64,000 nucleotides of DNA from an uncultured Candidatus Saccharibacteria bacterium. GTDB lineage: Bacteria > Patescibacteriota > Minisyncoccia > Phycocordibacterales > PALSA-1337. The notes beneath the pieces were generated by a model, which saw only the letters and a list, made by a program, of their open reading frames with translations, was not told the origin of the DNA and did no database searches. Of this stretch, positions 5,487-61,972 are shown piece after piece. The position numbers were made by a program, and so were the translations under genes. The first letter of the stretch is position 1, and every line of letters starts with the position of its first letter. The DNA is taken from the NCBI GenBank assembly GCA_964495685.1, contig CAZBVQ010000001.1, positions 373,568 to 437,567 on the forward strand. The letters run 5' to 3'.

Positions 5487-6017
5487 ATGCAAAAGCCAAT
5501 CCTGGGTGCACTAATCGCACTCTTCGTTGCGGCGAACGCATCGCCGCGGGACATGACTCCAGGGGAGTCAGATAAGGGTCGGCCACCGACGCATGTGCAG
5601 TTGACCGACGAACAGTTGATGTACCTCAACAACTATTGTGGTAAACGTAGCTGGGCCATTTTTCTCTGCCGTGTACTTGGTTATTTTCACGGCAGGCATA
5701 ATGCCGACATCACGCTCGAGGATTTGCGTCCTCGTGCCGCGAAACACTGCGGACTACCTTCAGATGCGGTCTGGGAATCATTTCTTGGGGTCAAGAAATA
5801 CCAGAAGTATCTGACCGAAGTAAATCGCAAGAAAATCTCCAAGGTGCTCTTCGGGCATGAAGATGCCACCTGGGTGCAGCTGCTCAACAGGATTGAGTGG
5901 CTCCGCATCAAACGTGAACAGAACGAGATCTCGATGAGAGTGCAGGGCGACCAGGGAGGTCGCCTTTTTTGTTCTAGGCCCGGCCTAGAAATTCGGTTAT
6001 ACTACCGACATGAATAG
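5487..6017 (+). CDS. Hypothetical secreted protein
   Basis: Signal-peptide-like N-terminus (MQKPILGALIALFVAANA). The 3' end of the ORF runs through a terminator hairpin and the palindrome at 5972-5990, so the true C-terminus is uncertain. Confidence 0.35.
   Translation: MQKPILGALIALFVAANASPRDMTPGESDKGRPPTHVQLTDEQLMYLNNYCGKRSWAIFLCRVLGYFHGRHNADITLEDLRPRAAKHCGLPSDAVWESFLGVKKYQKYLTEVNRKKISKVLFGHEDATWVQLLNRIEWLRIKREQNEISMRVQGDQGGRLFCSRPGLEIRLYYRHE
5946..5970 (+). terminator. Rho-independent terminator (GGCGACC-AGGG-AGGTCGCC followed by T6)
   Basis: Perfect 7-bp GC-rich stem followed by TTTTTT, seen directly in the sequence. Confidence 0.55.
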
Positions 6018-9639: not shown

Positions 9640-10386
9640 GTGGGATGTAACCAAAACCCGATAGTAGTTGAAAATCAAATGAAGACGAAGATGTTAGTCA
9701 TTGGCGCCTTGGCAGTTGCCTTGGCGGTAATTAACCCCATCACTATCCATGCAGTGCCCGTCACTCCTGATTATGACACGTTCGGTCCGCTTGCCGGCGC
9801 GACGTTTGGCGGAAGTGGTATTCCAAACCACTCAGTTGCGGTTAGCACGTCTGGTGGCGTGACTCTGGGTCTCGAAGCTCATCAGCGTTACGTCGGCCCG
9901 GATCTGGTGGACAATGGGGCGGGCACTTATTGGGCCAACCCTGGACCTGGCACGCCGGCCAACCTGAGCACCTGGAACTTCGCATTCTATGGTCTCGGCT
10001 CTGCTTCGGCACCTGGCGCAACGGCCCGTTTGTTCTATGACTTCGATCCGGCGATCGGCAATGACCAAAGCACACTGGGTTATGTCAATCTTGGTCTCTT
10101 GGGTTTGACCCCGGGGCAAGATTCTTGGAATCTCGGTTTTTCCTTTTTGGATACGGCCATTCCTGGTGTCGTGGTACCTCCTACCTACCCATCGTTCAAT
10201 CCGAATGCGGTTGGAGAATACAGCTTCGTCCTGGAAGCATACAACCGAGATGGGCAGACCATTGGCCGGTCAGCGATTAATGTGAACACCTCAGCTGTCC
10301 CCGACTCCGGTTCGACGTTTGCCTCCTTAGGCCTTGCCTCGCTCGGCCTTCTGGCATTTCGCAAATTCACGCTTGTGACGGCCTGA
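9640..10386 (+). CDS. Secreted protein with a C-terminal VPDSG/PEP-CTERM-like sorting signal
   Basis: N-terminal signal peptide (MKTKMLVIGALAVALAVINPITIHA). C-terminus is VPDSGSTFASLGLASLGLLAFRKF: a VP-D-S-G motif, a hydrophobic helix and a basic tail. Confidence 0.5.
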   Translation: MGCNQNPIVVENQMKTKMLVIGALAVALAVINPITIHAVPVTPDYDTFGPLAGATFGGSGIPNHSVAVSTSGGVTLGLEAHQRYVGPDLVDNGAGTYWANPGPGTPANLSTWNFAFYGLGSASAPGATARLFYDFDPAIGNDQSTLGYVNLGLLGLTPGQDSWNLGFSFLDTAIPGVVVPPTYPSFNPNAVGEYSFVLEAYNRDGQTIGRSAINVNTSAVPDSGSTFASLGLASLGLLAFRKFTLVTA

Positions 10387-10525: not shown

Positions 10526-10951
10526 TTAGGTTTTCGGACGATGGATCGGCCGACACGTATTGGTGATGATGGCCAGGTCAATCTCTTGCTGCATTCGTCT
10601 CACGGTGCACACTTGGAACTGTGTTCCGTTTCGGACAATTCTCGATCCGGCCAAGAATCCGTTTGCGGCAGTAGTTAGTTCTACCAGGACAGATCGTTTG
10701 AGGTGTTCGCCGGGGAATTCCTTTCCTTGATCACAAACAATGAGTACATACGCACTACTGATGAGCATGGATCCTGCTTCGCAATCATGAGCTTCTGGAG
10801 AACTAGACTCAATACGGAAGCAGAGTCTGTTTCGGGCGAGAGTGAAGTGTTCTGTATCGGTCAGAGGATCTCTTCCTGCATCAATTTTTGCGCGAATGCG
10901 TCGAACTTCATTTTCGTATGCGCGACGATTGAATCGTTTCGGTAGCTTCAT
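10526..10951 (-). CDS. Hypothetical protein (second gene of a small minus-strand operon)
   Basis: 141-aa ORF whose start overlaps the stop of the upstream 81-aa ORF by 4 nt. Ends at a bidirectional terminator (GCGCACGGAGTGTTCTGTGCGC). No recognisable domain. Confidence 0.35.
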   Translation of the reverse strand: MKLPKRFNRRAYENEVRRIRAKIDAGRDPLTDTEHFTLARNRLCFRIESSSPEAHDCEAGSMLISSAYVLIVCDQGKEFPGEHLKRSVLVELTTAANGFLAGSRIVRNGTQFQVCTVRRMQQEIDLAIITNTCRPIHRPKT

Positions 10952-11193
10952 TTCGTCCTCCTGTTTCTCACTGCCTCATCCCATGGAGGCCCTACGTAGG
11001 TCTCAATGGACAGGCCAATGAAAAGAATTATTGTTGTGACAACATCGAGACCGATTGAGAAAATCGATATCAGTACCAATGTGGCCATGTTGAGCGTGCT
11101 GTCGAGGTACTCGCCGAATGCGATCCAGAGAAATACACATATCGCAATGGCAGTTCCTGCCATGAGTGCAAGTTTCAAGTTACTCAAGTGCAT
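10948..11193 (-). CDS. Small two-helix membrane protein (hypothetical)
   Basis: Two clear hydrophobic helices (LMAGTAIAICVFLWIAF; LVLISIFSIGLDVVTTIILFIGL). Translationally coupled to the downstream ORF. Confidence 0.4.
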   Translation of the reverse strand: MHLSNLKLALMAGTAIAICVFLWIAFGEYLDSTLNMATLVLISIFSIGLDVVTTIILFIGLSIETYVGPPWDEAVRNRRTK

Positions 11194-11237: not shown

Positions 11238-14207
11238 ATGAGGTATAATCAATCCATGTCCAACCAGGTATTCGATATCCAATACAAGCGCCTCAACAAG
11301 GCCCAAAAAGAGGCAGTGGATGCCATCGAGGGACCTGTCATGGTCATCGCCGGTCCTGGAACTGGTAAAACGACTATTCTAACGCTCCGAATAGCGAATA
11401 TCCTCAAACGTACTGATACGCCCGCCAACGGCATTCTTGCCATCACCTATACCGACGCGGGAGTCAAAGCGATGCGCCAAAAACTCCAAGGAATAATAGG
11501 TGACAGAGCTCATGATGTTCGCATTCACACTTTTCATGGATTTGCTTCTTCGGTCATCGCTGAATACCCAGATCATTTCCTGCATTTGTCAGACAAGAAA
11601 CAGATGACTGATATCGAGCAGGAGTCGCTCATTCGCGCAATCATTACTGACACCAAGTTTGCTGACGTACGTCCGGCAGGCAAACCAGACGCGTATATTT
11701 CAGGGATTATTCGCAGTATAGATGATGCCAAAAGGGAGGCACTTACCCCAGAAATGGTCCGCCAACATGCACGACAGGAGATCGGGCGTATCAAGAATGA
11801 CGAGGATTCTATTTCTTCACGTGGCGCCACCAAGGGCAAACTCAAAGCCGATGCACTCGAGCAGATCGCCAAATGTGAGCGTACCATTCTGTTCGGTGAT
11901 ATTTACGAACTCTATGAAGCCAAGAAAGAAGAGGTCAAGAAGATGGATTTCAACGACCTTATCATCGAGCTTCTCCTTGCGCTCAGGAATGATGAATTGC
12001 TGCTCCGCCTTCTTCAAGAACGCTATCTCTATCTTCATGTTGATGAACATCAAGACACCAACGACGCACAAAACTTCATCGTCGGCATGATTGCTGAGTT
12101 CTTCGAGACCCCGAATATTTTCATTGTCGGTGATGAGAAGCAGGCTATTTACCGTTTCCAGGGAGCATCGGTTGAGAATTTCTTGCTTCTCCAGAAGAAA
12201 TGGCCAGCCATGAAGCTCATTTCTCTCGATACCAACTATCGCTCACACCAAGATATTCTTGATGCCAGTTTCGGCATGATTGAGAAGAACTATGAAGAAG
12301 GTGAGCATGCTGATTTGCGCATCAAATTGAAAGGTGGTTCTAAACTAGACACTGAATCTGGGTCCACATCAGGTCTACAAATCGTCACGGGCGAGAATGT
12401 GGCAGCCATCGAAGCTCATATGGTCGGAGAATTGCATGCTCTCTACGAACGTGAGCCGAACGCAACTACTGCCATCATCGTCCGTCGCAATCGTGATCTT
12501 GATCGCGTCATCAGGTTGCTCGAGTCCAATGGTATCGCCGTAGCTTCTGAGCGTAGTATCGATATGTTCAGTCATCCCGTCGGGCGCCTATTCTTTGACC
12601 TTGTTGATTATCTCACTGATCTCTCCAAGACTGACGCATTGGCACGTACGATGGTGGCAGGAATGTGGGAACTGTCGCTGGAGCAGGCCATCGATCTGGT
12701 CAAGAATGTCAAAAGTGGCAAGCCATTCGAACTTCCTGCACTTCTCGGTATCCAACGTCAGATGCTCAATGACGGCGCTATCGGCTTCCTCATTCATGCC
12801 GCAGAACAATCGGGCTTCACCACACTGGTCACTCGTCATCCTTCATATATTCATGTTTGGCGTGGCATCATCACCTTGGCAGAATCACTGACGCGGGAAG
12901 GTGACATTCGTGATCCGGTCGAGCTCATTCGTGCTATGCTCGCCTATCGACTCTCAGCTGAGACCAAGACAGTCAAAGTATCAGTCGGTGCACCTGATCT
13001 ACCTATTCGTGCCATGACAGCTCACGGGAGTAAGGGGCTTGAATTTGATCATGTATTCATACCATATGTCACCGAAGAATCATGGGTGGGTCGTCCCAAG
13101 GGCGCCTCATTCGTGTTGCCCAAGAAACGTACGGCTGATAGCGATATTCGTGATGTGCGCCGTCTCTTCTATGTGGCACTGACTCGTGCACGTAAGCATG
13201 TCACAGTCCTGACTGCACGCGAAGAGTCTGACGGCAAAGCATTGGAGCCACTACGCTTCATCGATGAGCTCGAAGAGAAGTACGCATCGCGATTGTCATT
13301 GTCGCGTGTAGGTATCGAGGCGGTGCATGAAGGAGGATCTGAGAAGCGGCGAGCGCAGAGTAGTGAGCATGATACTATCGGCACCGAACTGGTCAGCATC
13401 GCCAAGCGCGTACTCACCGAAAAGGGTTTGTCAGTGACTGCACTCAATCATTTCTTGAAATGCCCGAATACATTTTTGTATCAGAGTATATTGAAACTTC
13501 CGCAGGCGCCGTCTGTTCCTGCAGAGAAGGGAAGCGCTATGCATTATGCATTCGATGCTGCATGGCAATCTACGGATCGTTCTAGGGCTGGTCTAGAATT
13601 GGTCATGAAAGAAAAGATCACTGAATATTTTGCCGACTCATTCCTGCCAAGTGTGGAGAAGACACCTGCCATGAAAGAATTGCTTGATGATGTGCCGGCT
13701 GTCGCAGCGGCACTGGAGTCTCATTTCGCACAGTCCGAACGTGCCACAGTCTATACCGAGACATGGGTGGAGCGAGAATTCACTGGTACGTACAATGGTC
13801 AGACCATTCACATCCCACTTCACGGCAAGATGGATGCTATCGTCGATACGAGTGACCTAGTCTACGTCTATGACTACAAGACACGCCAAGCCATGTCAGT
13901 GAATGCTATCAAGGGTGAGACCAAGAGTGATTCGAGTGGTGATTATTTCCGACAGCTGATTTTCTACAAACTACTTCTCAGTGCTGATCCGCGTTGGCGT
14001 ACCAAGAAGATTGAACCAGCTCTGGTATTCGTGTCGCCAGATGACAAGGGGAGGTGCCCGACTGTGACGGTGCCTATCGAGGCGACTGACAGTGAGCGGG
14101 TTAACAAAGAGATTCAACAACTGATCGACAGTGTCTGGAGTGGTGCTATCGCCACTGCTACCTGTGATGACAAGGATTGCGAATGGTGTGGTGTGAGGAG
14201 GGTATAA
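11238..14207 (+). CDS. ATP-dependent helicase-nuclease: UvrD/PcrA-type SF1 helicase fused to a C-terminal RecB/Cas4-like PD-(D/E)xK nuclease with a Cys cluster
   Basis: Walker A (GPGTGKTT) and UvrD-like motifs (TFHGFAS; VDEHQDTN; FIVGDEKQAIYRFQGA; RSHQDIL; YVALTRARKH). C-terminal YVYDYKTRQ ... YFRQLIFYKLLL nuclease motifs plus KCPNT and CDDKDCEWCG cysteines, AddB/Cas4-like. TATAAT about 12 nt upstream of the ATG. Confidence 0.8.
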   Translation: MRYNQSMSNQVFDIQYKRLNKAQKEAVDAIEGPVMVIAGPGTGKTTILTLRIANILKRTDTPANGILAITYTDAGVKAMRQKLQGIIGDRAHDVRIHTFHGFASSVIAEYPDHFLHLSDKKQMTDIEQESLIRAIITDTKFADVRPAGKPDAYISGIIRSIDDAKREALTPEMVRQHARQEIGRIKNDEDSISSRGATKGKLKADALEQIAKCERTILFGDIYELYEAKKEEVKKMDFNDLIIELLLALRNDELLLRLLQERYLYLHVDEHQDTNDAQNFIVGMIAEFFETPNIFIVGDEKQAIYRFQGASVENFLLLQKKWPAMKLISLDTNYRSHQDILDASFGMIEKNYEEGEHADLRIKLKGGSKLDTESGSTSGLQIVTGENVAAIEAHMVGELHALYEREPNATTAIIVRRNRDLDRVIRLLESNGIAVASERSIDMFSHPVGRLFFDLVDYLTDLSKTDALARTMVAGMWELSLEQAIDLVKNVKSGKPFELPALLGIQRQMLNDGAIGFLIHAAEQSGFTTLVTRHPSYIHVWRGIITLAESLTREGDIRDPVELIRAMLAYRLSAETKTVKVSVGAPDLPIRAMTAHGSKGLEFDHVFIPYVTEESWVGRPKGASFVLPKKRTADSDIRDVRRLFYVALTRARKHVTVLTAREESDGKALEPLRFIDELEEKYASRLSLSRVGIEAVHEGGSEKRRAQSSEHDTIGTELVSIAKRVLTEKGLSVTALNHFLKCPNTFLYQSILKLPQAPSVPAEKGSAMHYAFDAAWQSTDRSRAGLELVMKEKITEYFADSFLPSVEKTPAMKELLDDVPAVAAALESHFAQSERATVYTETWVEREFTGTYNGQTIHIPLHGKMDAIVDTSDLVYVYDYKTRQAMSVNAIKGETKSDSSGDYFRQLIFYKLLLSADPRWRTKKIEPALVFVSPDDKGRCPTVTVPIEATDSERVNKEIQQLIDSVWSGAIATATCDDKDCEWCGVRRV

Positions 14208-19632: not shown

Positions 19633-21387
19633 CTATCTTCTCTCTCTGATTTCCTCTACCAATTTTTTCACCACCTCATCCACGCTCATCTGCCCGACCT
19701 GTCCCTTGTCTCTACTTTCCAGTGTCACCTTACCAGCCTGAATATCTTTGTCGCCAATGATGATTGTATAAGGCACACGTGCATTCTTGGCGGCGCGTAT
19801 TTTTTTGCCGAAATTGTCATTTGAGTCATAAAAGTCAGAACGAATCATGGCGGCACGGAGCGCCTCGTGGATTTTCTTGGCTTCGTCGGCATGCGCTTCA
19901 GCGACGGGAATAACGGCTACTTGTGTCGGTGCCAGCCAGAGAGGGAAGTTGCCACCGTAGTGTTCTATGAGGAAGCCAATGAAGCGTTCATGAGTACCGA
20001 GTGGTGCACGGTGAATACAAAGAGGTGTCTTGGCGACACCATCTTTGTCAGTATAGGTAAGACCGAATCGAGCTGGTACAGCGAAGTCGACCTGGTTGGT
20101 GGCAAGGGTAAATTCACGACCAATGGCACTCCAGACCTGCACATCAATTTTGGGACCATAGAAAGCGGCTTCGTTGGGAACTTCAATAAAAGGAATTTTT
20201 GAATCCACGAGCACTTTGCGGACCATGTCCTCGGTCTTCTTCCAGAGCGCTGGTTCGTTGACGAACTTCTGGCCCAATTTCCTGGGATCATGAGTCGAGA
20301 AACGCATGACGTACTTGTCGACACCGAAAATCTTGAAATACTGGAGATACATATCATTCACGGCCTTGAATTCATCGGCAAACTGTTCTTCTGTGCAGTA
20401 CATGTGCGCATCATTCATCTGGAGTGTGCGTACGCGCATGAGTCCGAAGAGCTCACCTGATTTCTCGTGACGATAACAGGTGCCGTATTCTGCCAAGCGA
20501 AGTGGTAGGTCGCGATAGCTCTTGGGACGAGCTCCGAAAATCTTGTGGTGATGCGGACAGTTCATGGCTTTCAGATAATATTTGCCGCCCTCGTATTCCA
20601 TCGGAGGATACATGGACTCTTCGTAGTAAGGCAGGTGACCACTCTTCAGGTACATTGATTCCTTGGCGATATGCGGTGTGCGTACACGAACATAGCCCAT
20701 TTTGAATTCAGTCTCTTTTGCCAATTTTTCTAGTTCCTCGACCAAGACTGCACCGTTCGGCAACCAGAGGGGGAGCCCTGGGCCGACATCATCATCAAAT
20801 TCGAAGAGGTCGAGCTCTTTGCCTAGCTTGCGGTGATCGCGCTTCTCAGCTTCTTTCATCATAGTTTCGTACTCGTCTAGGCCGGGCCTGGACTCGAACG
20901 CCAGGCCGTAGATACGCGTCAGTTGCGCGTTCTCCTCACTTCCACGCCAGTAGGCGCCAGCGAGTCGATTGAGCTTGAAACAATCAGATGGGATATCCTT
21001 TGCGGGATTTTCGATATGGCCACCACGGCAGAGGTCAGTAAATTTGCCCATAGTGTAGAAGGTAATTTTTTCACCCTTCTCAGCAATCTCATTGATGAGC
21101 TCTATCTTGTACGGATTGGTCTTGAAATGCTCCAGAGCTTCTTCTTTGCTGACTTCCTTGTGCTCGACTGATTTCCATGAAGGTAGAAGTTTGCGCATTT
21201 TCTTTTCGATATCCTTGAGGTCTTTCTCAACGATAGGAGTCTTGAATTCGAAGTCGTAATAAAAACCGTTATCGATGGCAGGACCGATGGTCGGCTTGGT
21301 GTCGGGATGTAGTTCAAGTACCGCCGCGGCCAAGAGGTGGGCGAGTGTGTGACGGAGATGGGGGAGGTGGTCGTTTGTTGGATTCAT
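19633..21387 (-). CDS. thrS: Threonine--tRNA ligase (short form lacking the N-terminal TGS domain)
   Basis: Class II core plus N2 editing-domain HxxxH region (LRHTLAHLLAAAV), motifs 2/3, C-terminal anticodon-binding domain. Confidence 0.9.
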   Translation of the reverse strand: MNPTNDHLPHLRHTLAHLLAAAVLELHPDTKPTIGPAIDNGFYYDFEFKTPIVEKDLKDIEKKMRKLLPSWKSVEHKEVSKEEALEHFKTNPYKIELINEIAEKGEKITFYTMGKFTDLCRGGHIENPAKDIPSDCFKLNRLAGAYWRGSEENAQLTRIYGLAFESRPGLDEYETMMKEAEKRDHRKLGKELDLFEFDDDVGPGLPLWLPNGAVLVEELEKLAKETEFKMGYVRVRTPHIAKESMYLKSGHLPYYEESMYPPMEYEGGKYYLKAMNCPHHHKIFGARPKSYRDLPLRLAEYGTCYRHEKSGELFGLMRVRTLQMNDAHMYCTEEQFADEFKAVNDMYLQYFKIFGVDKYVMRFSTHDPRKLGQKFVNEPALWKKTEDMVRKVLVDSKIPFIEVPNEAAFYGPKIDVQVWSAIGREFTLATNQVDFAVPARFGLTYTDKDGVAKTPLCIHRAPLGTHERFIGFLIEHYGGNFPLWLAPTQVAVIPVAEAHADEAKKIHEALRAAMIRSDFYDSNDNFGKKIRAAKNARVPYTIIIGDKDIQAGKVTLESRDKGQVGQMSVDEVVKKLVEEIRERR

Positions 21388-21690
21388 GTTGTGTGTTTGC
21401 GCAGGTCTACCCTGCGCATGTTATTGATAAATAAAACGCCCGAGTATATACGCGAAAATTCACGTACATACTCGGGCGGAGAACTAATGTTCTTCGTGGT
21501 TCCACCGAGTTTCCCTTCGACAAGCGTAGGGCACTCTTTGGTACAGATTGGTCTCGACTGTGAGATCGGATGGATCCGACTACGATTGGTGGCCGTAGCG
21601 ACTTCTGTGCAGGTAATTATATAATTTCTTTTATATTCAGTAAATAGGATGTGTAGTTGCGCATACATAAATATTATGGCACACTATTTT
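21388..21690 (-). promoter_or_regulatory. Putative T-box leader of thrS (minus strand)
   Basis: Minus-strand CUCGGUGGAACCACG at plus 21494-21512 resembles the T-box consensus AGGGUGGNACCGCG. Downstream terminator at 21437-21478 (CGCCCGAGUAU ... AUACUCGGGCG plus U-run), whose 3' arm is mimicked by the T-box CUCGG (antiterminator logic). An upstream hairpin loop GCCACCAAU contains the Thr codon ACC followed by A. Confidence 0.4.
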
Positions 21691-23224: not shown

Positions 23225-23329
23225 GGGAGAGGTATTTTCTAGGTGTCCGTTCATGTGCATGCAAGGAAGGATGGATCTGGTAGGCTGAAGTACTGGTATT
23301 TTTGGATAATATGGTGTTATAATTCACAC

Positions 23330-23845
23330 ATGACTAAACCATCATCTTTCCTTTTAATCAAGACCAACCTGAATTCTCTTAGGGTTGTAAGGTCTGTCAA
23401 AGAGAGTCCATTTGTGAAATGGGCAAGTGTCGTGTATGGACCGTATCAGATAGTGGCCTACGTCCAGACTGATACTGATACAGAAATGGCAAATTTTATT
23501 GAAGATTTGCGTTCACGAAGATTCATAACTGAGCTTGATGCTAGAATGGTAAAGGTCATTCCAGATGATGAGAAGCTTACTCTCCCCGAAGTAAAGGCAG
23601 AAAAAGTTGCTGTTCTACTTGTTAATGTTAATTATAAAGAAGAAAAAGAGAGAGTGGTCACTTACAATCTAAGGAAAGTCAAAGGTATAAAGCTGGCGAG
23701 AGCCATGTGGGGCCCCGCTGACATAATCGCGATTGTGGAAGCTGAGGACGCTGAAGCTATGAGAAATAAGATATGTGATGAAGTAAAAACAATGAAAGGT
23801 GTCATTTCGAACACCACATTATACTGTTATCCTAATTCTCTATGA
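23330..23845 (+). CDS. Tandem Lrp/AsnC C-terminal (RAM/ACT-like) ligand-binding domain protein without HTH
   Basis: Two repeats with the AsnC-C pattern (FLLIKTNLNSLRVV ... VYGPYQIVAYVQT ... ; VAVLLVNVNYKEE ... ADIIAIVEAED ...). Start choice (23330 vs 23243) is uncertain. Overlaps the downstream gene by 4 nt. Confidence 0.45.
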   Translation: MTKPSSFLLIKTNLNSLRVVRSVKESPFVKWASVVYGPYQIVAYVQTDTDTEMANFIEDLRSRRFITELDARMVKVIPDDEKLTLPEVKAEKVAVLLVNVNYKEEKERVVTYNLRKVKGIKLARAMWGPADIIAIVEAEDAEAMRNKICDEVKTMKGVISNTTLYCYPNSL

Positions 23846-24963
23846 AAAATAAACCTGTAGCTTTTGGTGCACTTATCTTGGTCATAGTCGCAATTGTATT
23901 GGCCGTTGTTTATTTGCCGACGCGACAGAAGGTGGCTATAGACCCTCTGAAGATCGGTGTAGATTTTCCACTGACAGGTAATCTTGCCAGATATGGCGAG
24001 TGGGGCAAAAGGGCCATTGAGATAGCTTCGGAAGAAACAAATGCCTCGGGAGGTGTTAATGGCTTACCAGTGCAAGTCTTTTTTGAGGACAACCAAGGTG
24101 AACCTTCGAAGGCGCTTTCTGCGTATCAAAAGATGAAAAGTCTAGATGGTATCGACGCAGTAATGACACTCGTAAGTTCTATTGCACTTATTGTCCAGAA
24201 GAGTGCTGAACAGGACAAGATCGTCCAAATGGACACATCTGCGTCGACCCCAGCATACAGTACTCCCAATGACTATTCCTTCAGGACAGGTGTAGTTGCT
24301 ACTCAGCTTGCAAAGGATGCGGCGCATATTCTCCAGGATAAGTTTAATGCCAAAAATATTGCAATTTTAAGTATTAATAACGATTTCGGTAAAGGGATGG
24401 TCGGTGTATTTAAGAGTTCATTCAAGGGTACTATCGTCGTGGAGCAGACATTTAATCAGGATGGGATAGATTTTAGAACTCAGCTTCTGAATTTAAAAAA
24501 ACAAAATGTTGATTTTATATTTTTGGTTGGGCACATAAAAGAGTCCGGTCTTCTTGTTAGACAAGCAAGAGAACTTGGCATCAAAACTCCCATCTTTAGT
24601 GACGTGTATTCGGTTGAGGGACCAGAATTTATCCAAAATGCAGGAGAGCTTGCTGATGGGATAGTGTATCTGGGCATACAATTTGATGCGGATAATAAAA
24701 GCCCTGAGGTTTCAAAATTTGTTACTGCATATCGAGCCAAATACGGCGAAGATCCTGGAGTGTATGCCGCACAAGCATACGACGGTATCATGGCCCTAAT
24801 CAAGGCCTACGATAAATGCCCAGACAATGAGTGCGCCAAGAGACAACTGTTTACGACAGATTTTCAAGGAGTTTCTGGTCGAATCAAATTTGATGAGAAT
24901 GGTGACGTGATAAAAGATGTTGTCCTAAAAACAATAAAAGACGGTAAGTTTGTAAACTATTAA
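23842..24963 (+). CDS. ABC-type branched-chain amino-acid-family substrate-binding protein (Peripla_BP_6-like), N-terminally membrane anchored; no cognate permease or ATPase in the window
   Basis: Signal-anchor (VAFGALILVIVAIVLAVVYL). Periplasmic binding protein type I fold motifs (IGVDFPLTGNLARYGEWGKRAIEIASEE; AILSINNDFGKG; FIFLVGH). Confidence 0.7.
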   Translation: MKNKPVAFGALILVIVAIVLAVVYLPTRQKVAIDPLKIGVDFPLTGNLARYGEWGKRAIEIASEETNASGGVNGLPVQVFFEDNQGEPSKALSAYQKMKSLDGIDAVMTLVSSIALIVQKSAEQDKIVQMDTSASTPAYSTPNDYSFRTGVVATQLAKDAAHILQDKFNAKNIAILSINNDFGKGMVGVFKSSFKGTIVVEQTFNQDGIDFRTQLLNLKKQNVDFIFLVGHIKESGLLVRQARELGIKTPIFSDVYSVEGPEFIQNAGELADGIVYLGIQFDADNKSPEVSKFVTAYRAKYGEDPGVYAAQAYDGIMALIKAYDKCPDNECAKRQLFTTDFQGVSGRIKFDENGDVIKDVVLKTIKDGKFVNY

Positions 24964-25056
24964 AAGAGCATTTACCGGGCTCTCTTTCAAAGAGAGGTCT
25001 TCGGGAAACATTGGTGCTATTCTATTGCTGAAACTGAGGAGGAATAGGGGTATTTT

Positions 25057-25094
25057 CCAGGCCCGGCCTAGAAAATATTCTAGGCCGGGCCTGG
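25057..25094. repeat. 38-nt perfect palindrome CCAGGCCCGGCCTAGAAAATATTCTAGGCCGGGCCTGG followed by a T-run
   Basis: Perfect dyad including the centre AATATT. Lies between the SBP gene stop and the rplU extended -10 element (TGTATAATG at about 25118-25126). Confidence 0.7.
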
Positions 25095-25116
25095 AATTTG
25101 CGTTTTTTGGGTCTTC

Positions 25117-25452
25117 ATGTATAATGTTCTGACTATGCAATTCGCAGTTATCGCAACCGGTGGCAAGCAGTACACAGTCTCAAAAGGGGATGTTATCTCC
25201 ATTGAGAAGATTACGGGTACCTACAAAGAGGGTGACAAGATCACTTTCGACAAGGTACTCCTCACTGATGACGGCAAAGATACTACGATCGGCACTCCCT
25301 ATATCCCCAAGGCCTCAGTCGTTGGTACTATTACACAGATTGGTCGCGCCCCGAAGATTATGGTTGTCCACTACAAGCAGAAGAGTCGTTACTACAAGAA
25401 AAACGGCCATCGCCAGCCTTTCTTCAAGGTCAAGATCGATAGTCTCAAATAA
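25117..25452 (+). CDS. rplU: 50S ribosomal protein L21
   Basis: MQFAVIATGGKQYTVSKGDVISIEKI ... is the L21 signature. Followed by terminator AAAAAACCGCTTGATGGCGGTTTTTTT at 25453-25480. No rpmA follows. Confidence 0.85.
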   Translation: MYNVLTMQFAVIATGGKQYTVSKGDVISIEKITGTYKEGDKITFDKVLLTDDGKDTTIGTPYIPKASVVGTITQIGRAPKIMVVHYKQKSRYYKKNGHRQPFFKVKIDSLK

Positions 25453-27501: not shown

Positions 27502-27572
27502 GTGCTGATTGTATCACAGGGGCAGGAATGTGTCGGCGCGCACGTTATGAAATGGGTGGAAAAGGTGTGGAG

Positions 27573-27679
27573 ATCCCCGACAATGTATGCGCACAGGCCC
27601 CAGAAAGGAGAACTTCGTGGTATGCGGAGTGAGTGCCAAGATCTGTTTCTGGGGCCTGTGCGCATACATTGTTGGGGAT
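27573..27679 (+). ncRNA. Structured hairpin element, copy 1: 34-bp near-perfect stem enclosing a conserved ~33-nt core
   Basis: Left arm 27573-27606 pairs with right arm 27646-27679 (one G-T position, which is G-U on the plus transcript). Loop 27607-27645 contains CTTCGTGGTATGCGGAGTGAGTGCCAAGATC, nearly identical to the loop of copy 2. Confidence 0.45.
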
Positions 27680-27816
27680 TTTCATGGCGAATGTTGTTGT
27701 TTACTAGACCATATAAATAAATCTTCAGCGAATCTTCAGCGAATCTTCATTTTTTCTTCATGCACCATTGGTACTGTACATACATTATTAGCAACCCATA
27801 ATACACTTCCAATTTC

Positions 27817-35619: not shown

Positions 35620-35984
35620 TGGCTCCGCGGCCAGGGATCGAACCTGGGACATCCTCGTTACGTTTGGTCTCCTATTACTAGGGGTACGGACTATATCATC
35701 TCCAATGAAACTCGTGTCAAAGCTTCATTACGGAGTAAGGCGCTTCCCAGAGCATATTGCTCCAGTACTCCCACAAGGGGATAGTCTCTGAACCTTTCCC
35801 TCACATGGATTCTTGCTATGTCATCGGTGTACATAACAAAGATTCATGTGAGGGACTTGGCTGCTGATTGCCCACATTTGCATGTTGGGGTTTCCGGCAA
35901 TTCACCTTATTTTTCAGCCTAAGTTTCCTTAGGAAGCTGCTATTCTCTAACAGCGAGGCGCTCTACCGGCTGAGCTACCGCGGA
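35620..35984 (-). tRNA. tRNA-Asn (anticodon GUU) interrupted by a 289-nt group I intron
   Basis: 5' exon at plus 35950-35984 gives TCCGCGG-TA-GCTC-AGCCGGTA-GAGC-G-CCTCG-CTGT. 3' exon at plus 35620-35660 gives TAA-CGAGG-ATGTC-CCAGG-TTCGATC-CCTGG-CCGCGGA-G-CCA. Spliced cloverleaf is canonical with anticodon loop CUGUUAA. Intron (plus 35661-35949) follows U35 and ends in G. P1 is GCTGT/GCAGC with U-G, P2 is CCTAAG-GAAA-CTTAGG. Core elements P AATTGCCGGAAA, Q AATCAGCAGC, R GTTCAGAGACTA and S GATATAGTCC are all present. Confidence 0.8.
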
Positions 35985-52551: not shown

Positions 52552-52659
52552 GGCCGGCAGGAATATGTGCACGTGATGCGAATGAAGGTTAATTCGTGGT
52601 ATGCGGAGTATGTTCCAAGATCGGTTCATTCGCATCACGTGCGCATATTCCTGCCGGCC
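52552..52659 (+). ncRNA. Structured hairpin element, copy 2: 35-bp near-perfect stem enclosing the conserved ~33-nt core
   Basis: Left arm 52552-52586 pairs with right arm 52625-52659 (one T-G position, which is U-G on the plus transcript). Loop 52587-52624 contains ATTCGTGGTATGCGGAGTATGTTCCAAGATC. Confidence 0.45.
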
Positions 52660-58911: not shown

Positions 58912-61818
58912 ATGAAGAAGTCCATCTCCAAGCCCACGGGGTTGTCCGTATATGACCACAAGGCTATCGAATCCAAGTGGCAGAAAGTGTGGGAGAAGAA
59001 AAAGTCGTATCAAGTAAAGGAGGATTTAAATAAAAAGAAGTTTTACGGTCTCATCGAATTTCCATATCCATCCGGAGATGGTCTCCATGTCGGTCACATC
59101 CGCAGCAACACGGCAATGGACGTCATTGCCCGCAAGCGCCGCGCTGAAGGGTTCAATGTGCTGTATCCGATTGGTTGGGACGCTTTTGGCCTACCGACAG
59201 AGAACTATGCCATCAAGACAGGTATCCAGCCAGCTATTGTTACAAAAAAGAATACGGACACATTCCGCCGTCAACTCAAGGCACTTGGCTTCTCATTTGA
59301 TTGGTCACGTGAAATAGACACTACTGATCCTGCGTATTACAAATGGACGCAGTGGATATTCCTGCAATTCTTCAAGAAGGGATTGGCGTACAAAAAGAAG
59401 ATGACCATCAATTGGTGTCCGAAGGATTTGATCGGTCTAGCCAATGAAGAAGTCGTGGATGGAAAATGTGAGCGTTGTGGTACAGCTGTAGAAAAGCGCG
59501 AGAAAGAACAGTGGATGTTGGCGATTACGAAGTATGCGGAGAGGTTGGATAAGGATCTAGATAAGACGCAATTTCTAGAGAAGATCAAAATTCAGCAGAG
59601 GAATTGGATAGGGAAGAGTGAGGGGGCGGAGATTGATTTTGAAATACGAAATGAAAAAATAACAGTCTTTACGACACGACCGGATACTCTTTTCGGGGTG
59701 ACATACATCGTCTTGGCACCTGAGCACGTATTGATACAGCAACTACTTTCTGTAGTCGAAAACAAAAAGGATATCGAGGAATATATTTCAAAGGCAAAGA
59801 AGGAGTCAGAGATGGAGCGCACTGATGCTTCCAAAGAAAAAACAGGTGTTGAGCTGAAGGGTATCAAAGCCATCAATCCTGCCAATAATGAAGAGGTGCC
59901 GGTGTGGATCGCGGACTATGTCCTGGCCGACTATGGTACGGGTGCGGTCATGGCGGTGCCTGCGCATGATGAGCGAGATTACGCATTTGCCAAGAAATAT
60001 GGATTGCCAATAAGGGACGTCGTCATGCCTATAAGAGTCGATGCTTCAAATCCACATGTTCATGGTAAGAAGGTTGTGGAGCGTAAGGCCGTACAAGCAA
60101 TTATTGTGGATCCGAAAACAAAGAAGATTCTTTGCCTCAAATGGAAAAAGCAACCGTGGACAACGTTTGTTGTTGGGGGTGTTGAGGGTAACGAAGATAG
60201 TGTCGAGGCGGCGCGTAGAGAAATTGCTGAAGAGACTGGATACACAGATCTCAAACTCGTACGTGTCCTCGGGGGGCCAGTACGAAGTGAATTTTTTGCC
60301 GCACACAAAGATGTCAATCGTATCGCGTATTTCAATGCAATTCATTTTGAGCTTGCGAGCGACAAACGGACACCGTTGACTGATGAGGAGCAAGAGAAGC
60401 ATGAAGTAATCTGGATGGATGCTGATGCTATCGGACCTGGTGTTATGCAATGTGGAGAGCTTGATATTTGGATGAACCGATTCAAGACGGGCAACGATGT
60501 TGTTCTTGAAGATGGCGAGCTCATCAATTCAGGATCCTTCAACGGTAAGGAGTCATTATTAGTTAAAAAAGAAATTACTGAATCTGTCGGTGGGAAGTGG
60601 ATCACCACCTTCAAACTCCGCGACTGGATCTTCTCCCGCCAGCGCTACTGGGGTGAGCCGATTCCCGTCATCAACTGTGAAAAATGTGGCCTTGTCCCTG
60701 TCCCAGAAAAAGATTTGCCCGTGAAGTTGCCAGCGGTAAAGAATTACAAGCCCACTGAAACAGGCGAGTCACCATTGGCTGCAATTACGAAGTGGGTCAA
60801 CACCAAGTGTCCGCAATGCAAAGGTAAAGCCACCCGCGAAACTGACACCATGCCAAATTGGGCGGGTTCAAGTTGGTACTATTTGCGCTATGCTGATGCA
60901 CATAATAAGAAAGAATTCGCCTCAAAAAAGAGTCTGGACTATTGGACACCAGTCGATTGGTACAATGGTGGTATGGAACACACCACGCTCCACTTACTCT
61001 ATTCTCGTTTCTGGCACAAATTCCTCTTTGATCTTGGATTGGTACCGACTGATGAACCATATACCAAACGTACCTCCCATGGCCTCATTTTGGCCGAAGG
61101 TGGGGTCAAAATGTCGAAGTCAAAGGGCAACGTCATCAACCCTGATAGTATTGTCGAAACAGTCGGCGCTGACAGTTTGCGCCTCTATGAGATGTTCATG
61201 GGACCATTCGACCAGCCGATTTCGTGGGATACCAATAATATTGCTGGGGTCAGACGTTTCTTGGAACGAGTCTGGAAGTTGAGAGAGAAAGTAGTAAACT
61301 CTAAACTCGAAACTCTGAATTCTAAACAAATTCAAAATTCGAAATTTGAAATTCAAAACGCAGCAGACAAAATCATCCACAAAACTATCAAGAAAGTCAG
61401 TGACGATATCGAAGCGATGCGCTTCAATACGGCCGTGAGTGCACTCATGATCGCCCTCAACGAACTGGAGAAGATAGAAACTATCGGTACACAGCAGTAC
61501 GCATCATTCCTGCAGCTTCTGGCACCCTTCGCGCCTCATATTGTCGAAGAATTGTGGGCATCACTCGGAAATAAGACGTCTGTCCATCTCGCTCCGTGGC
61601 CGACGTATGATGCGTCGTTGGCTGTGGATAATGAGGTGACTATCATGGTGCAAATCAATGGCAAAGTGCGGGGCTCATTCATGGTGCCTGTGGATTCTAG
61701 TAGGGAAGAGCTCGAATCCCGTGCCAAAGCTCTTCCCGAAGCGGCCAAGTGGATCGCTGGTGGTCAGATCAAGAAAGTTATCGTGGTACTCAACAAATTG
61801 GTCAATATTGTTGTCTAG
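58912..61818 (+). CDS. leuS: Leucine--tRNA ligase with a NUDIX hydrolase domain inserted between the CP1/editing region and the leucyl-specific domain
   Basis: HIGH (HVGH), editing-domain T-rich region (TTRPDTLFGV), KMSKS, anticodon-binding C-terminus. Perfect Nudix box GGVEGNEDSVEAARREIAEETGY in an insert of about 140 aa at roughly nt 60040-60490. Two tandem terminators at 58820-58880 upstream. Confidence 0.9.
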   Translation: MKKSISKPTGLSVYDHKAIESKWQKVWEKKKSYQVKEDLNKKKFYGLIEFPYPSGDGLHVGHIRSNTAMDVIARKRRAEGFNVLYPIGWDAFGLPTENYAIKTGIQPAIVTKKNTDTFRRQLKALGFSFDWSREIDTTDPAYYKWTQWIFLQFFKKGLAYKKKMTINWCPKDLIGLANEEVVDGKCERCGTAVEKREKEQWMLAITKYAERLDKDLDKTQFLEKIKIQQRNWIGKSEGAEIDFEIRNEKITVFTTRPDTLFGVTYIVLAPEHVLIQQLLSVVENKKDIEEYISKAKKESEMERTDASKEKTGVELKGIKAINPANNEEVPVWIADYVLADYGTGAVMAVPAHDERDYAFAKKYGLPIRDVVMPIRVDASNPHVHGKKVVERKAVQAIIVDPKTKKILCLKWKKQPWTTFVVGGVEGNEDSVEAARREIAEETGYTDLKLVRVLGGPVRSEFFAAHKDVNRIAYFNAIHFELASDKRTPLTDEEQEKHEVIWMDADAIGPGVMQCGELDIWMNRFKTGNDVVLEDGELINSGSFNGKESLLVKKEITESVGGKWITTFKLRDWIFSRQRYWGEPIPVINCEKCGLVPVPEKDLPVKLPAVKNYKPTETGESPLAAITKWVNTKCPQCKGKATRETDTMPNWAGSSWYYLRYADAHNKKEFASKKSLDYWTPVDWYNGGMEHTTLHLLYSRFWHKFLFDLGLVPTDEPYTKRTSHGLILAEGGVKMSKSKGNVINPDSIVETVGADSLRLYEMFMGPFDQPISWDTNNIAGVRRFLERVWKLREKVVNSKLETLNSKQIQNSKFEIQNAADKIIHKTIKKVSDDIEAMRFNTAVSALMIALNELEKIETIGTQQYASFLQLLAPFAPHIVEELWASLGNKTSVHLAPWPTYDASLAVDNEVTIMVQINGKVRGSFMVPVDSSREELESRAKALPEAAKWIAGGQIKKVIVVLNKLVNIVV

Positions 61819-61972
61819 GCCGGGTCTAGACATGTTCCAATTTGACAATAAGGTGTGGATAAGGTAGTGTATACACATCAAGCCTGGGTGTGTCCGGACG
61901 ATATGTCCCCACAAGATTGACTTTATTACAAGCGAGTGATACAAATGTATCAATTATTTATTATTATTTTCC

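Follow-up and report, generated by a model that had tools for sequence, protein, structure and literature searches.

Is the 19-nucleotide (nt) palindrome that stands just ahead of dnaG in this 64,000-nt stretch of contig CAZBVQ010000001.1 (hereafter the window), together with its counterparts elsewhere in the window, an operator or something else? The initial annotation described a GGCCCGGCC-centred family at the promoters of dnaG, rplU, and a gene encoding a sigma-r4/HARE-HTH protein, and proposed operators of a global dimeric regulator, or a structural family like the repetitive extragenic palindromes (REPs), rather than random terminators. The three loci are real, but two intragenic members (13580-13598 and 20875-20893) had been overlooked. 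Taken with these two, the palindromes are probably, though well short of certainly, a small lineage-specific REP-like hairpin repeat family in a metagenome-assembled Parcubacteria/Paceibacterota genome of the Patescibacteria and not promoter operators.

Six palindromic units at five loci

The family comprises six 19-nt units at five loci in the 64-kb window, where chance would supply about 0.05. The units, and one further candidate, are as follows.

5972-5990, unstranded: unit 1, TTCTAGGCCCGGCCTAGAA, a perfect palindrome with 9/9 pairs
13580-13598, unstranded: unit 2, TTCTAGGGCTGGTCTAGAA, inside the AddA-like UvrD/PD-(D/E)XK gene (11238-14207, + strand), translated SRAGLE
20875-20893, unstranded: unit 3, GTCTAGGCCGGGCCTGGAC (letters of the + strand), inside thrS (19633-21387, - strand), translated SRPGLD
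25055-25096, + strand: inverted doublet of unit 4 (25055-25073) and unit 5 (25078-25096), a 19-bp perfect stem with a 4-nt loop
61812-61832, unstranded: unit 6, T-GTCTAGGCCGGGTCTAGAC-A, palindromic over 21 nt (one G.T pair), the GTCTAGGCCGGGTCTAGAC core being at 61813-61831
10639-10657, unstranded: possible decayed copy TTCTCGATCCGGCCAAGAA, matching 14/18 positions, a weak candidate only

Several counts bear out the excess. Six sites agree with at least 15 of the 18 consensus positions, against 0.05 expected, a degenerate search of the window returns 12 strand-matches against 0.49 expected (a number that none of 100 shuffles attained), and no 10-mer of the window is more over-represented than CTAGGCCGGG (5 observed, 0.01 expected). 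The short core of the unit shows no excess in the window beyond the full sites. Near-identity over 17 to 19 nt at five loci is far above chance.

Each unit spans about 17 to 21 nt and consists of a GC-rich stem of 8 to 9 bp, a 3-nt loop, a core of the form AGGSC-N-GGSCT, and CTAG flanks; it is a short hairpin-forming palindrome of the kind that defines a REP (stem of 6 to 13 bp, short loop). Single units fold at -10 to -11 kcal/mol. Four units have T-A as their outermost stem pair and the other two have G-C, a compensated change, and G.T pairs occur in units 2 and 6. Units 3, 4, and 5 have in common an asymmetric 17-mer, TCCAGGCCCGGCCTAGA. The units occur as singlets and as one inverted doublet, at a density of about 1 unit per 11 kb, and four of the five loci fall within 19 kb.

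The palindrome at 5972-5990 had been called perfect over 19 nt, and it is. The site at 25057-25094 had been called a perfect 38-nt palindrome; two units are present there, but they form two 19-nt inverted arms, 100% complementary, around a 4-nt spacer (AATA). The pairing is perfect between units 4 and 5, whereas each unit alone has a mismatch.

The three promoters beside the palindromes

The promoter boxes that the initial annotation named for dnaG, rplU, and the sigma-r4/HARE-HTH gene are backed by conservation in related loci, which are denoted here by L numbers. The features that flank the intergenic palindromes are these.

5944-5970, + strand: canonical terminator hairpin of the gene upstream of dnaG (GGCGACC-AGGGA-GGTCGCC + T6), conserved in L114
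5998-6003, + strand: dnaG -10 box, TATACT, in a layout of leaderless type (6 nt to the ATG at 6010)
25097-25109, + strand: T-rich tract TTTGCGTTTTTTG, a proposed terminator tail, immediately 3' of the doublet stem
25118-25125, + strand: extended -10 of rplU, TGTATAAT, conserved in L008 and L020
61842-61870, + strand: promoter of the sigma-r4/HARE-HTH gene, TTGACA-N17-TAGTGT, conserved in relatives that lack the palindrome

If the palindromes were operators of a dimeric transcription factor controlling these three genes, a 19-bp dyad would be of a suitable size for a dimer, and each of the three intergenic copies does precede a promoter with boxes that relatives conserve. Their positions had been described as equivalent, and they are not: 7 nt separate the palindrome from the -10 at dnaG and 23 nt at rplU, and at the sigma-like gene it stands 10 nt from the -35. 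Nor is the palindrome confined to regulatory regions, for units 2 and 3 lie hundreds of codons into genes.

At the dnaG junction, unit 1 begins 1 nt past the T-run of the upstream gene's terminator, a separate and complete one, and ends 7 nt ahead of the dnaG -10; it has no T-run of its own. The arrangement TATACT-N6-ATG is kept in L114, and L113 has TATAAT-N6-ATG in the same place, a conservation of the -10 that suggests a leaderless layout. Between terminator and -10 there is no conservation: where the window has unit 1, L114 has an AT-rich stretch of 45 nt that includes a TTCATA hexamer resembling a -35. That unit 1 takes the place of the dnaG -35 and spacer, leaving no such hexamer in the window, is a point in favor of operators.

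Unit 1 is also traversed by an open reading frame (ORF) of 176 amino acids (aa), at 5487-6017, which overlaps the dnaG start, ends inside dnaG, and translates the unit as SRPGLE in its tail. A homologue search with this ORF returned as its sole database match the protein itself; direct comparison, however, shows homology to a 146-aa ORF in syntenic position in L114 (E = 2e-14 over residues 1-143 of both). The L114 orthologue stops ahead of its terminator hairpin (GCGGCC...GGTCGCC + T5), whereas the corresponding hairpin in the window (5944-5966, with T6) falls within the ORF, so the last ~30 codons arise by reading through that terminator and then unit 1. The product is a small, secreted-looking protein whose stop has been lost relative to the L114 orthologue.

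At the junction between leuS and the sigma-r4/HARE-HTH gene, the initial annotation had correctly seen a palindrome that overlaps the leuS stop and precedes a TTGACA box (61842-61847), but had placed it at 61815-61833, slightly offset from its actual position at 61813-61831. The leuS stop is the TAG of unit 6 (61816-61818). The promoter, TTGACA-N17-TAGTGT, and the leader are kept in L013, L015, L108, L109, and L111, all five of which lack the palindrome, and the sigma-r4/HARE-HTH gene itself is likewise conserved in relatives without it. In L108 and L109 leuS continues directly into the -35, the TGA stop of L108 falling within TTGACA, and relative to both the window has ~25 extra nt, which are the palindrome. 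On this comparison, unit 6 is a lineage-specific insertion between the end of leuS and a -35 that was already there. The unit has no T-run. The junction accepts varied insertions, since L111 carries an unrelated insert there and in L013 and L015 it is filled by an element of ~120 nt (9745-9865) with 30-nt inverted arms (AAGAAAACAGTATGCGCATTTTATCTCAAG).

The leucyl-tRNA synthetase (LeuRS) upstream of this junction is itself variable. The window LeuRS (58912-61818) has a NUDIX domain inserted after the editing domain, and the modules inserted in relatives differ (a serine-hydrolase, two NUDIX, or NUDIX plus HAD), the LeuRS proteins running from 968 to 1353 aa in length (L013/L015 6777-9728, L108 6418-9873, L111 1466-5527).

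At rplU, the promoter TGTATAATG is shared with L008 and L020, and the ATG at 25135 is a likelier start codon than the one at 25117. In L020, whose threonyl-tRNA synthetase (ThrRS) is 79% identical, TGTATAATG is kept and a different small hairpin, TGAAGGCCTGACCTTCA, occupies the same spot after rmuC.

The dnaG, rplU, and sigma-like promoters are thus conserved without the palindrome across L013, L015, L020, L108, L109, L111, L113, and L114; none of the three orthologous promoters in relatives bears the dyad. A scan of 80 thrS-centred loci from relatives (ThrRS identity 55-79%, about 1.1 Mb, allowing up to 3 mismatches) found no copy of the window unit. Compensated variation of the outer pair fits base pairing and not half-site recognition, and the pairing of the doublet, perfect only between its units, also tells against half-sites read by a dimer. 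With intragenic copies, unequal spacing, relatives' promoters that lack the palindrome, and an insertion at leuS, we consider control by a dimeric regulator very unlikely.

Gene ends, coding sequences, and relatives

No other site of its region is as terminator-like as the doublet (19 pairs and a T-run, -45.5 kcal/mol, z = -7.5). The doublet starts 7 nt past the rmuC stop codon, which belongs to a remnant of the gene in the window and is the real stop in L008. In L008 (~95% DNA identity) the doublet is followed by TTTGCGTTTTTTG and then by the conserved TGTATAATG. To set the family apart from random terminators was therefore too strong, since all three intergenic copies occupy the position of an upstream terminator and the doublet has the full anatomy of one.

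These same facts, together with the unrelated hairpins that relatives bear at corresponding junctions, would be expected if the palindromes were ordinary intrinsic terminators alike by chance, rather than a repeat family with dynamics of its own. We find that explanation highly doubtful, because the other terminators of the window are unrelated in sequence, units 1 and 6 have no T-run (and unit 1 stands behind a separate complete terminator), two copies are intragenic, and near-identity over 17 to 19 nt at five loci far exceeds chance.

Placement at gene ends is judged from a small sample of five loci: three lie 0 to 7 nt after a stop or terminator, and the other two are inside genes. As a rough estimate, ~65 gene ends with a 30-nt zone each make up ~3% of the window, and at least three of five random sites would fall in such zones with a probability near 3e-4. 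At several junctions the order is stop, hairpin, (TG)TATAAT, 6 to 9 nt, and ATG, and it is because the layout of the genome brings these elements together that the hairpins seem to sit on the -35 side of promoters.

Several genes have (TG)TATAAT or TATACT only 6 to 9 nt before the ATG, without a Shine-Dalgarno sequence, an arrangement conserved in relatives (window 5998-6012 and 25118-25137; L013, L015, L108, and L109 at about 11100-11190). Boxes so placed suggest leaderless transcripts.

The region beside the doublet has a history of its own. Relative to L008, a two-gene segment of 1.8 kb (23228-25027) is inserted between rmuC and the doublet; it encodes an Lrp/AsnC-domain protein and a periplasmic binding protein, and at its boundaries are ~40 duplicated nt from the rmuC 3' end and GTATTTTCTAGG, the first 7 nt of a unit. 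These boundaries suggest recombination at a palindrome unit. We considered an integron attC-like role for the doublet beside this insertion and dropped it, there being no integrase and a single such junction. The Lrp/AsnC-domain protein was dropped as a candidate binder, since its gene lies in an insertion absent from L008, which retains the doublet.

Units 2 and 3 are found at codon 782 of 989 of the AddA-like gene and at codon 166 of 584 of thrS. The AddA-like protein is unchanged in length relative to its L114 orthologue, with RSRAGLEL aligned to RTQNDIER, and unit 3 lies in a variable linker of ThrRS, where AFESRPGLDEYE aligns without an indel to AFATKAELDAYE and similar sequences; both stretches are poorly conserved. 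Only one frame of the unit is open, because the two CTAGs, on either strand, bring a TAG into different frames and so close two of the three. All coding copies use the stop-free frame, S-R-(P/A)-G-L-(E/D), and this shared SRxGL frame is a constraint of the sequence and not a coincidence.

Copies that replace sequence without an indel look as if they had been built in place, and the thrS and AddA-like copies are in this respect what one would expect of genome-wide sites of a DNA process unconnected with promoters, shaped where they stand by selection or biased conversion. Candidates would be sites for a nucleoid, partition, or occlusion protein (parS-, NBS-, or matS-like) or a motif resembling an uptake signal. 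The copies are evenly well preserved, with no clear decay series, and their lineage-specific consensus resembles the dialects of uptake sequences, for which inverted pairs at gene ends are known. Uptake signals, however, occur roughly once per kb, far more densely than the palindromes here. Flank pairs covary while the sequences differ, which favors a hairpin; relatives show true doublet insertions in thrS, in ychF, and at gene ends; the genes of the region read include none that is ParB- or Noc-like; and four of the five loci cluster within 19 kb, yet the GC skew of the window has no origin-like switch. We judge this alternative unlikely. A parS-like cluster near an origin was dropped for want of a skew switch and of a ParB gene in the region, and deamination of CCAGG to CTAGG of the Dcm/Vsr type, as a source of the C/T variants, is speculation, CCWGG not being depleted in the window.

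Relatives do carry a sister family. The core-only pattern AGG[CT]C-N-G[AG]CCT uncovers it in the closest relatives, from Hainich groundwater, and in its flanks, which lie outside the search pattern, 35 of 52 positions pair (p = 1.7e-10) although the sequences vary between copies. In 1.16 Mb of relatives, 150 perfect palindromes have an odd centre, and their commonest inner 5-mer is AGGTC. In L019, GTCGAGGCCTGACCTCGAC stands at the exact thrS codons of window unit 3, with a T-A (or C.A) pair swapped to G-C, and the orthologous rmuC-rplU position likewise holds a compensated version. The thrS of L020 has a palindromic doublet as a 51-nt in-frame insertion that adds 17 residues (L020 10346-10402), and a copy at 5915 in L013 and L015 is a 12-nt in-frame insertion in ychF. 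At 4371 in L013 the TGA stop of a gene lies at the centre of the palindrome, and L015 has an inverted doublet, A7-stem...stem-T7, immediately after the stop of the sigma-like gene. The palindromic 17-aa insertion of L020 falls in the ThrRS loop between ...YT.G and FTDLCRGGH; the same loop in L019 (about 683-730) has an unrelated A-rich insertion of 15 aa.

Beyond these relatives, the exact 19-mer gave two matches, both at chance level, in 185,579 species genomes (metagenome-assembled genomes of Polyangia and Solirubrobacterales), and a pattern with 15 specified bases gave three chance-level matches in viral contigs, with no link to phages. No Rfam family matched any of the palindromes, and a text search of the literature found nothing relevant on these sequences, on repeats of Patescibacteria, or on LexA motifs.

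A probable REP-like family and its known counterparts

The alternative that the initial annotation had offered beside operators, a REP-like structural family, is supported by the size of the units, the inverted doublets, the compensated stems, and the placement at 3' ends, and further by the donation of a TAG stop, the intragenic copies, and the rapid turnover. The shared asymmetric 17-mer, the compensated outer pairs, the pairing between the units of the doublet, and the presence or absence of copies among close relatives are our reasons for reading the palindromes as repeats that spread by copying under a constraint of pairing. Copies would be made, or overwritten, from other copies, and would persist only where they are harmless in a very compact genome. 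One tolerated place would be the few bases between the stop or terminator of one gene and the -10 of the next, and another the variable loops of proteins, which the unit could enter through its single stop-free frame; the intragenic copies would then be neutral. Transcribed at the 3' end of the upstream gene, copies could form RNA hairpins. Most likely the doublet with its U-tract, to judge by its anatomy, terminates transcription of the upstream gene, and singlets, if they act at all, most likely do so as 3'-end stem-loops, one of them supplying the leuS stop. Nearness to promoters would be a consequence of genome layout and not a sign of promoter control.

Several observations weigh against a REP-like family. 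There is no unpaired GTAG/CGTC tag, the flanks of the six units sharing no tetranucleotide and CTAG being paired in both arms. About 78 kb of the genome, by its called genes and Pfam hits, contains neither a REP-associated tyrosine transposase (RAYT/Y1) nor any other transposase. Classical REPs are denser than the palindromes in the region seen. Lacking a U-tract, units 1 and 6 are no more than candidate terminators, and the window has no clearly decayed copies except the one weak candidate. Finally, units 2 and 3 replace sequence without a change of length, which is unlike simple insertion and fits patch conversion or selection better.

A bolder possibility, tentative and on balance doubtful, is that hairpin-directed copying proceeds in reduced Parcubacteria genomes without a classical RAYT, by patch gene conversion or through an unrecognised enzyme of HUH or other type. 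Palindromic patches of 17 to 57 nt would be overwritten or inserted, including length-neutral ones in essential genes (thrS, AddA-like, ychF), and the consensus would drift by compensated changes between sister lineages.

If the palindromes are indeed REP-like, such hairpin repeats reach a lineage of the candidate phyla radiation with a genome of ~0.7 Mb, in which one would not expect selfish or structural repeats to be tolerated, and they can sit in frame within essential genes of that lineage. The case also holds a caution for the prediction of regulons in uncultured bacteria: dyads beside -10 boxes in compact genomes are easily misread as operators, because there the terminator of one gene nearly abuts the promoter of the next and the genes appear leaderless. 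The system itself is not new in kind, and it has no bearing on any open question of long standing unless the way in which the repeats spread turns out to be new.

The window contains other structured elements. Two elements of ~115 nt (27568-27684, upstream of dnaB, and 52552-52659, after a gene for a penicillin-binding protein [PBP] transpeptidase) have inverted arms of 39 and 35 nt that differ in sequence, share a loop of TTCGTGGTATGCGGAGT-N5-CCAAGATC, and have no Rfam match; the motif GGCAGGAATG is also over-represented in the window. They may be a small-RNA family or one resembling miniature inverted-repeat transposable elements (MITEs). A tRNA-Thr(GGU) gene at 35620-35984 (- strand) has a 289-nt group I intron at the anticodon loop (RF00028, 81 bits; ARAGORN intron option). 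About 50 nt ahead of the thrS start, the thrS leader has a 19-bp hairpin followed by a T-run (21437-21478, - strand); the arrangement resembles an attenuator, and no T-box match was found in it at the Rfam gathering score.

Among known systems, the DNA uptake sequences (DUS) of Neisseria, the uptake signal sequences (USS) of Pasteurellaceae, and the cyanobacterial HIP1 palindrome resemble the family in being lineage specific, over-represented, and built without indels, and in occurring both within genes, where their frames are restricted, and at gene ends, as inverted pairs. These motifs are 8 to 12 nt long and roughly ten times denser, and the unit here is itself a palindrome that recurs about once per 11 kb; to our knowledge, no DUS or USS unit is palindromic in itself, nor do compensated stem changes figure among their features. 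Rho-independent terminators are matched by the doublet at 25055-25096, a GC-rich 19-bp stem with a T-run right after a stop codon, but not by a sequence that recurs inside genes and after a separate terminator, nor by singlets without T-runs.

The palindromic elements of Rickettsia (RPE) are likewise found in frame in essential genes at tolerant surface positions, as are the palindromes of the relatives here (+51 nt in thrS, +12 nt in ychF). RPE-1 elements are roughly 100 to 150 bp long, whereas the units here are of 15 to 57 nt, in an unrelated lineage, and the intragenic copies of the window add no residues. SMAGs, of which a genome of Stenotrophomonas holds hundreds to more than a thousand, are another parallel. 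They are small GC-rich palindromes (GTAG families 6-9 in the survey by Di Nocera et al., PMC3733652) that occur as singlets and head-to-head dimers, mostly after genes, and are proposed to act as RNA hairpins; they differ in carrying a GTAG tag and in their link to RAYT/TIRYT genes.

The closest counterparts are the REPs themselves. As that survey describes them, REPs have stems of 6 to 13 bp, loops of 2 to 3 nt, complementary stem sub-families, and common G-T pairs, and they form dimers 1 to 5 bp apart; between co-directional genes they lie near the 3' end of the upstream ORF and at a variable distance from the downstream one, their termini supply TAG stops, and intragenic copies are known in UvrD/RecBCD-type and tRNA-synthetase genes (PMC3733652). 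Inverted REP doublets that form hairpins, termed REPINs, are linked to RAYT transposases (Bertels and Rainey, PMC3116915). The window unit, at 17 to 21 nt, is at the short end of the range, and Patescibacteria are not among the host phyla named in the parts of the survey used here (PMC3733652). Because it has no tag, no RAYT in 78 kb, and length-neutral intragenic copies, we call the family REP-like in behaviour and not a member of the GTAG/CGTC super-family. It nevertheless shares with REPs and REPINs a short stem-loop, a lineage-specific consensus, compensated sub-families, G-T pairs, and an occurrence as singlets and as inverted dimers (4 nt apart in the window) that fold into a larger hairpin (PMC3733652, in the parts cited; PMC3116915), and with REPs, as far as those parts of the survey go, a place near upstream 3' ends at three of its five loci, the donation of TAG stops, and copies within UvrD/RecB-type and tRNA-synthetase genes (PMC3733652).

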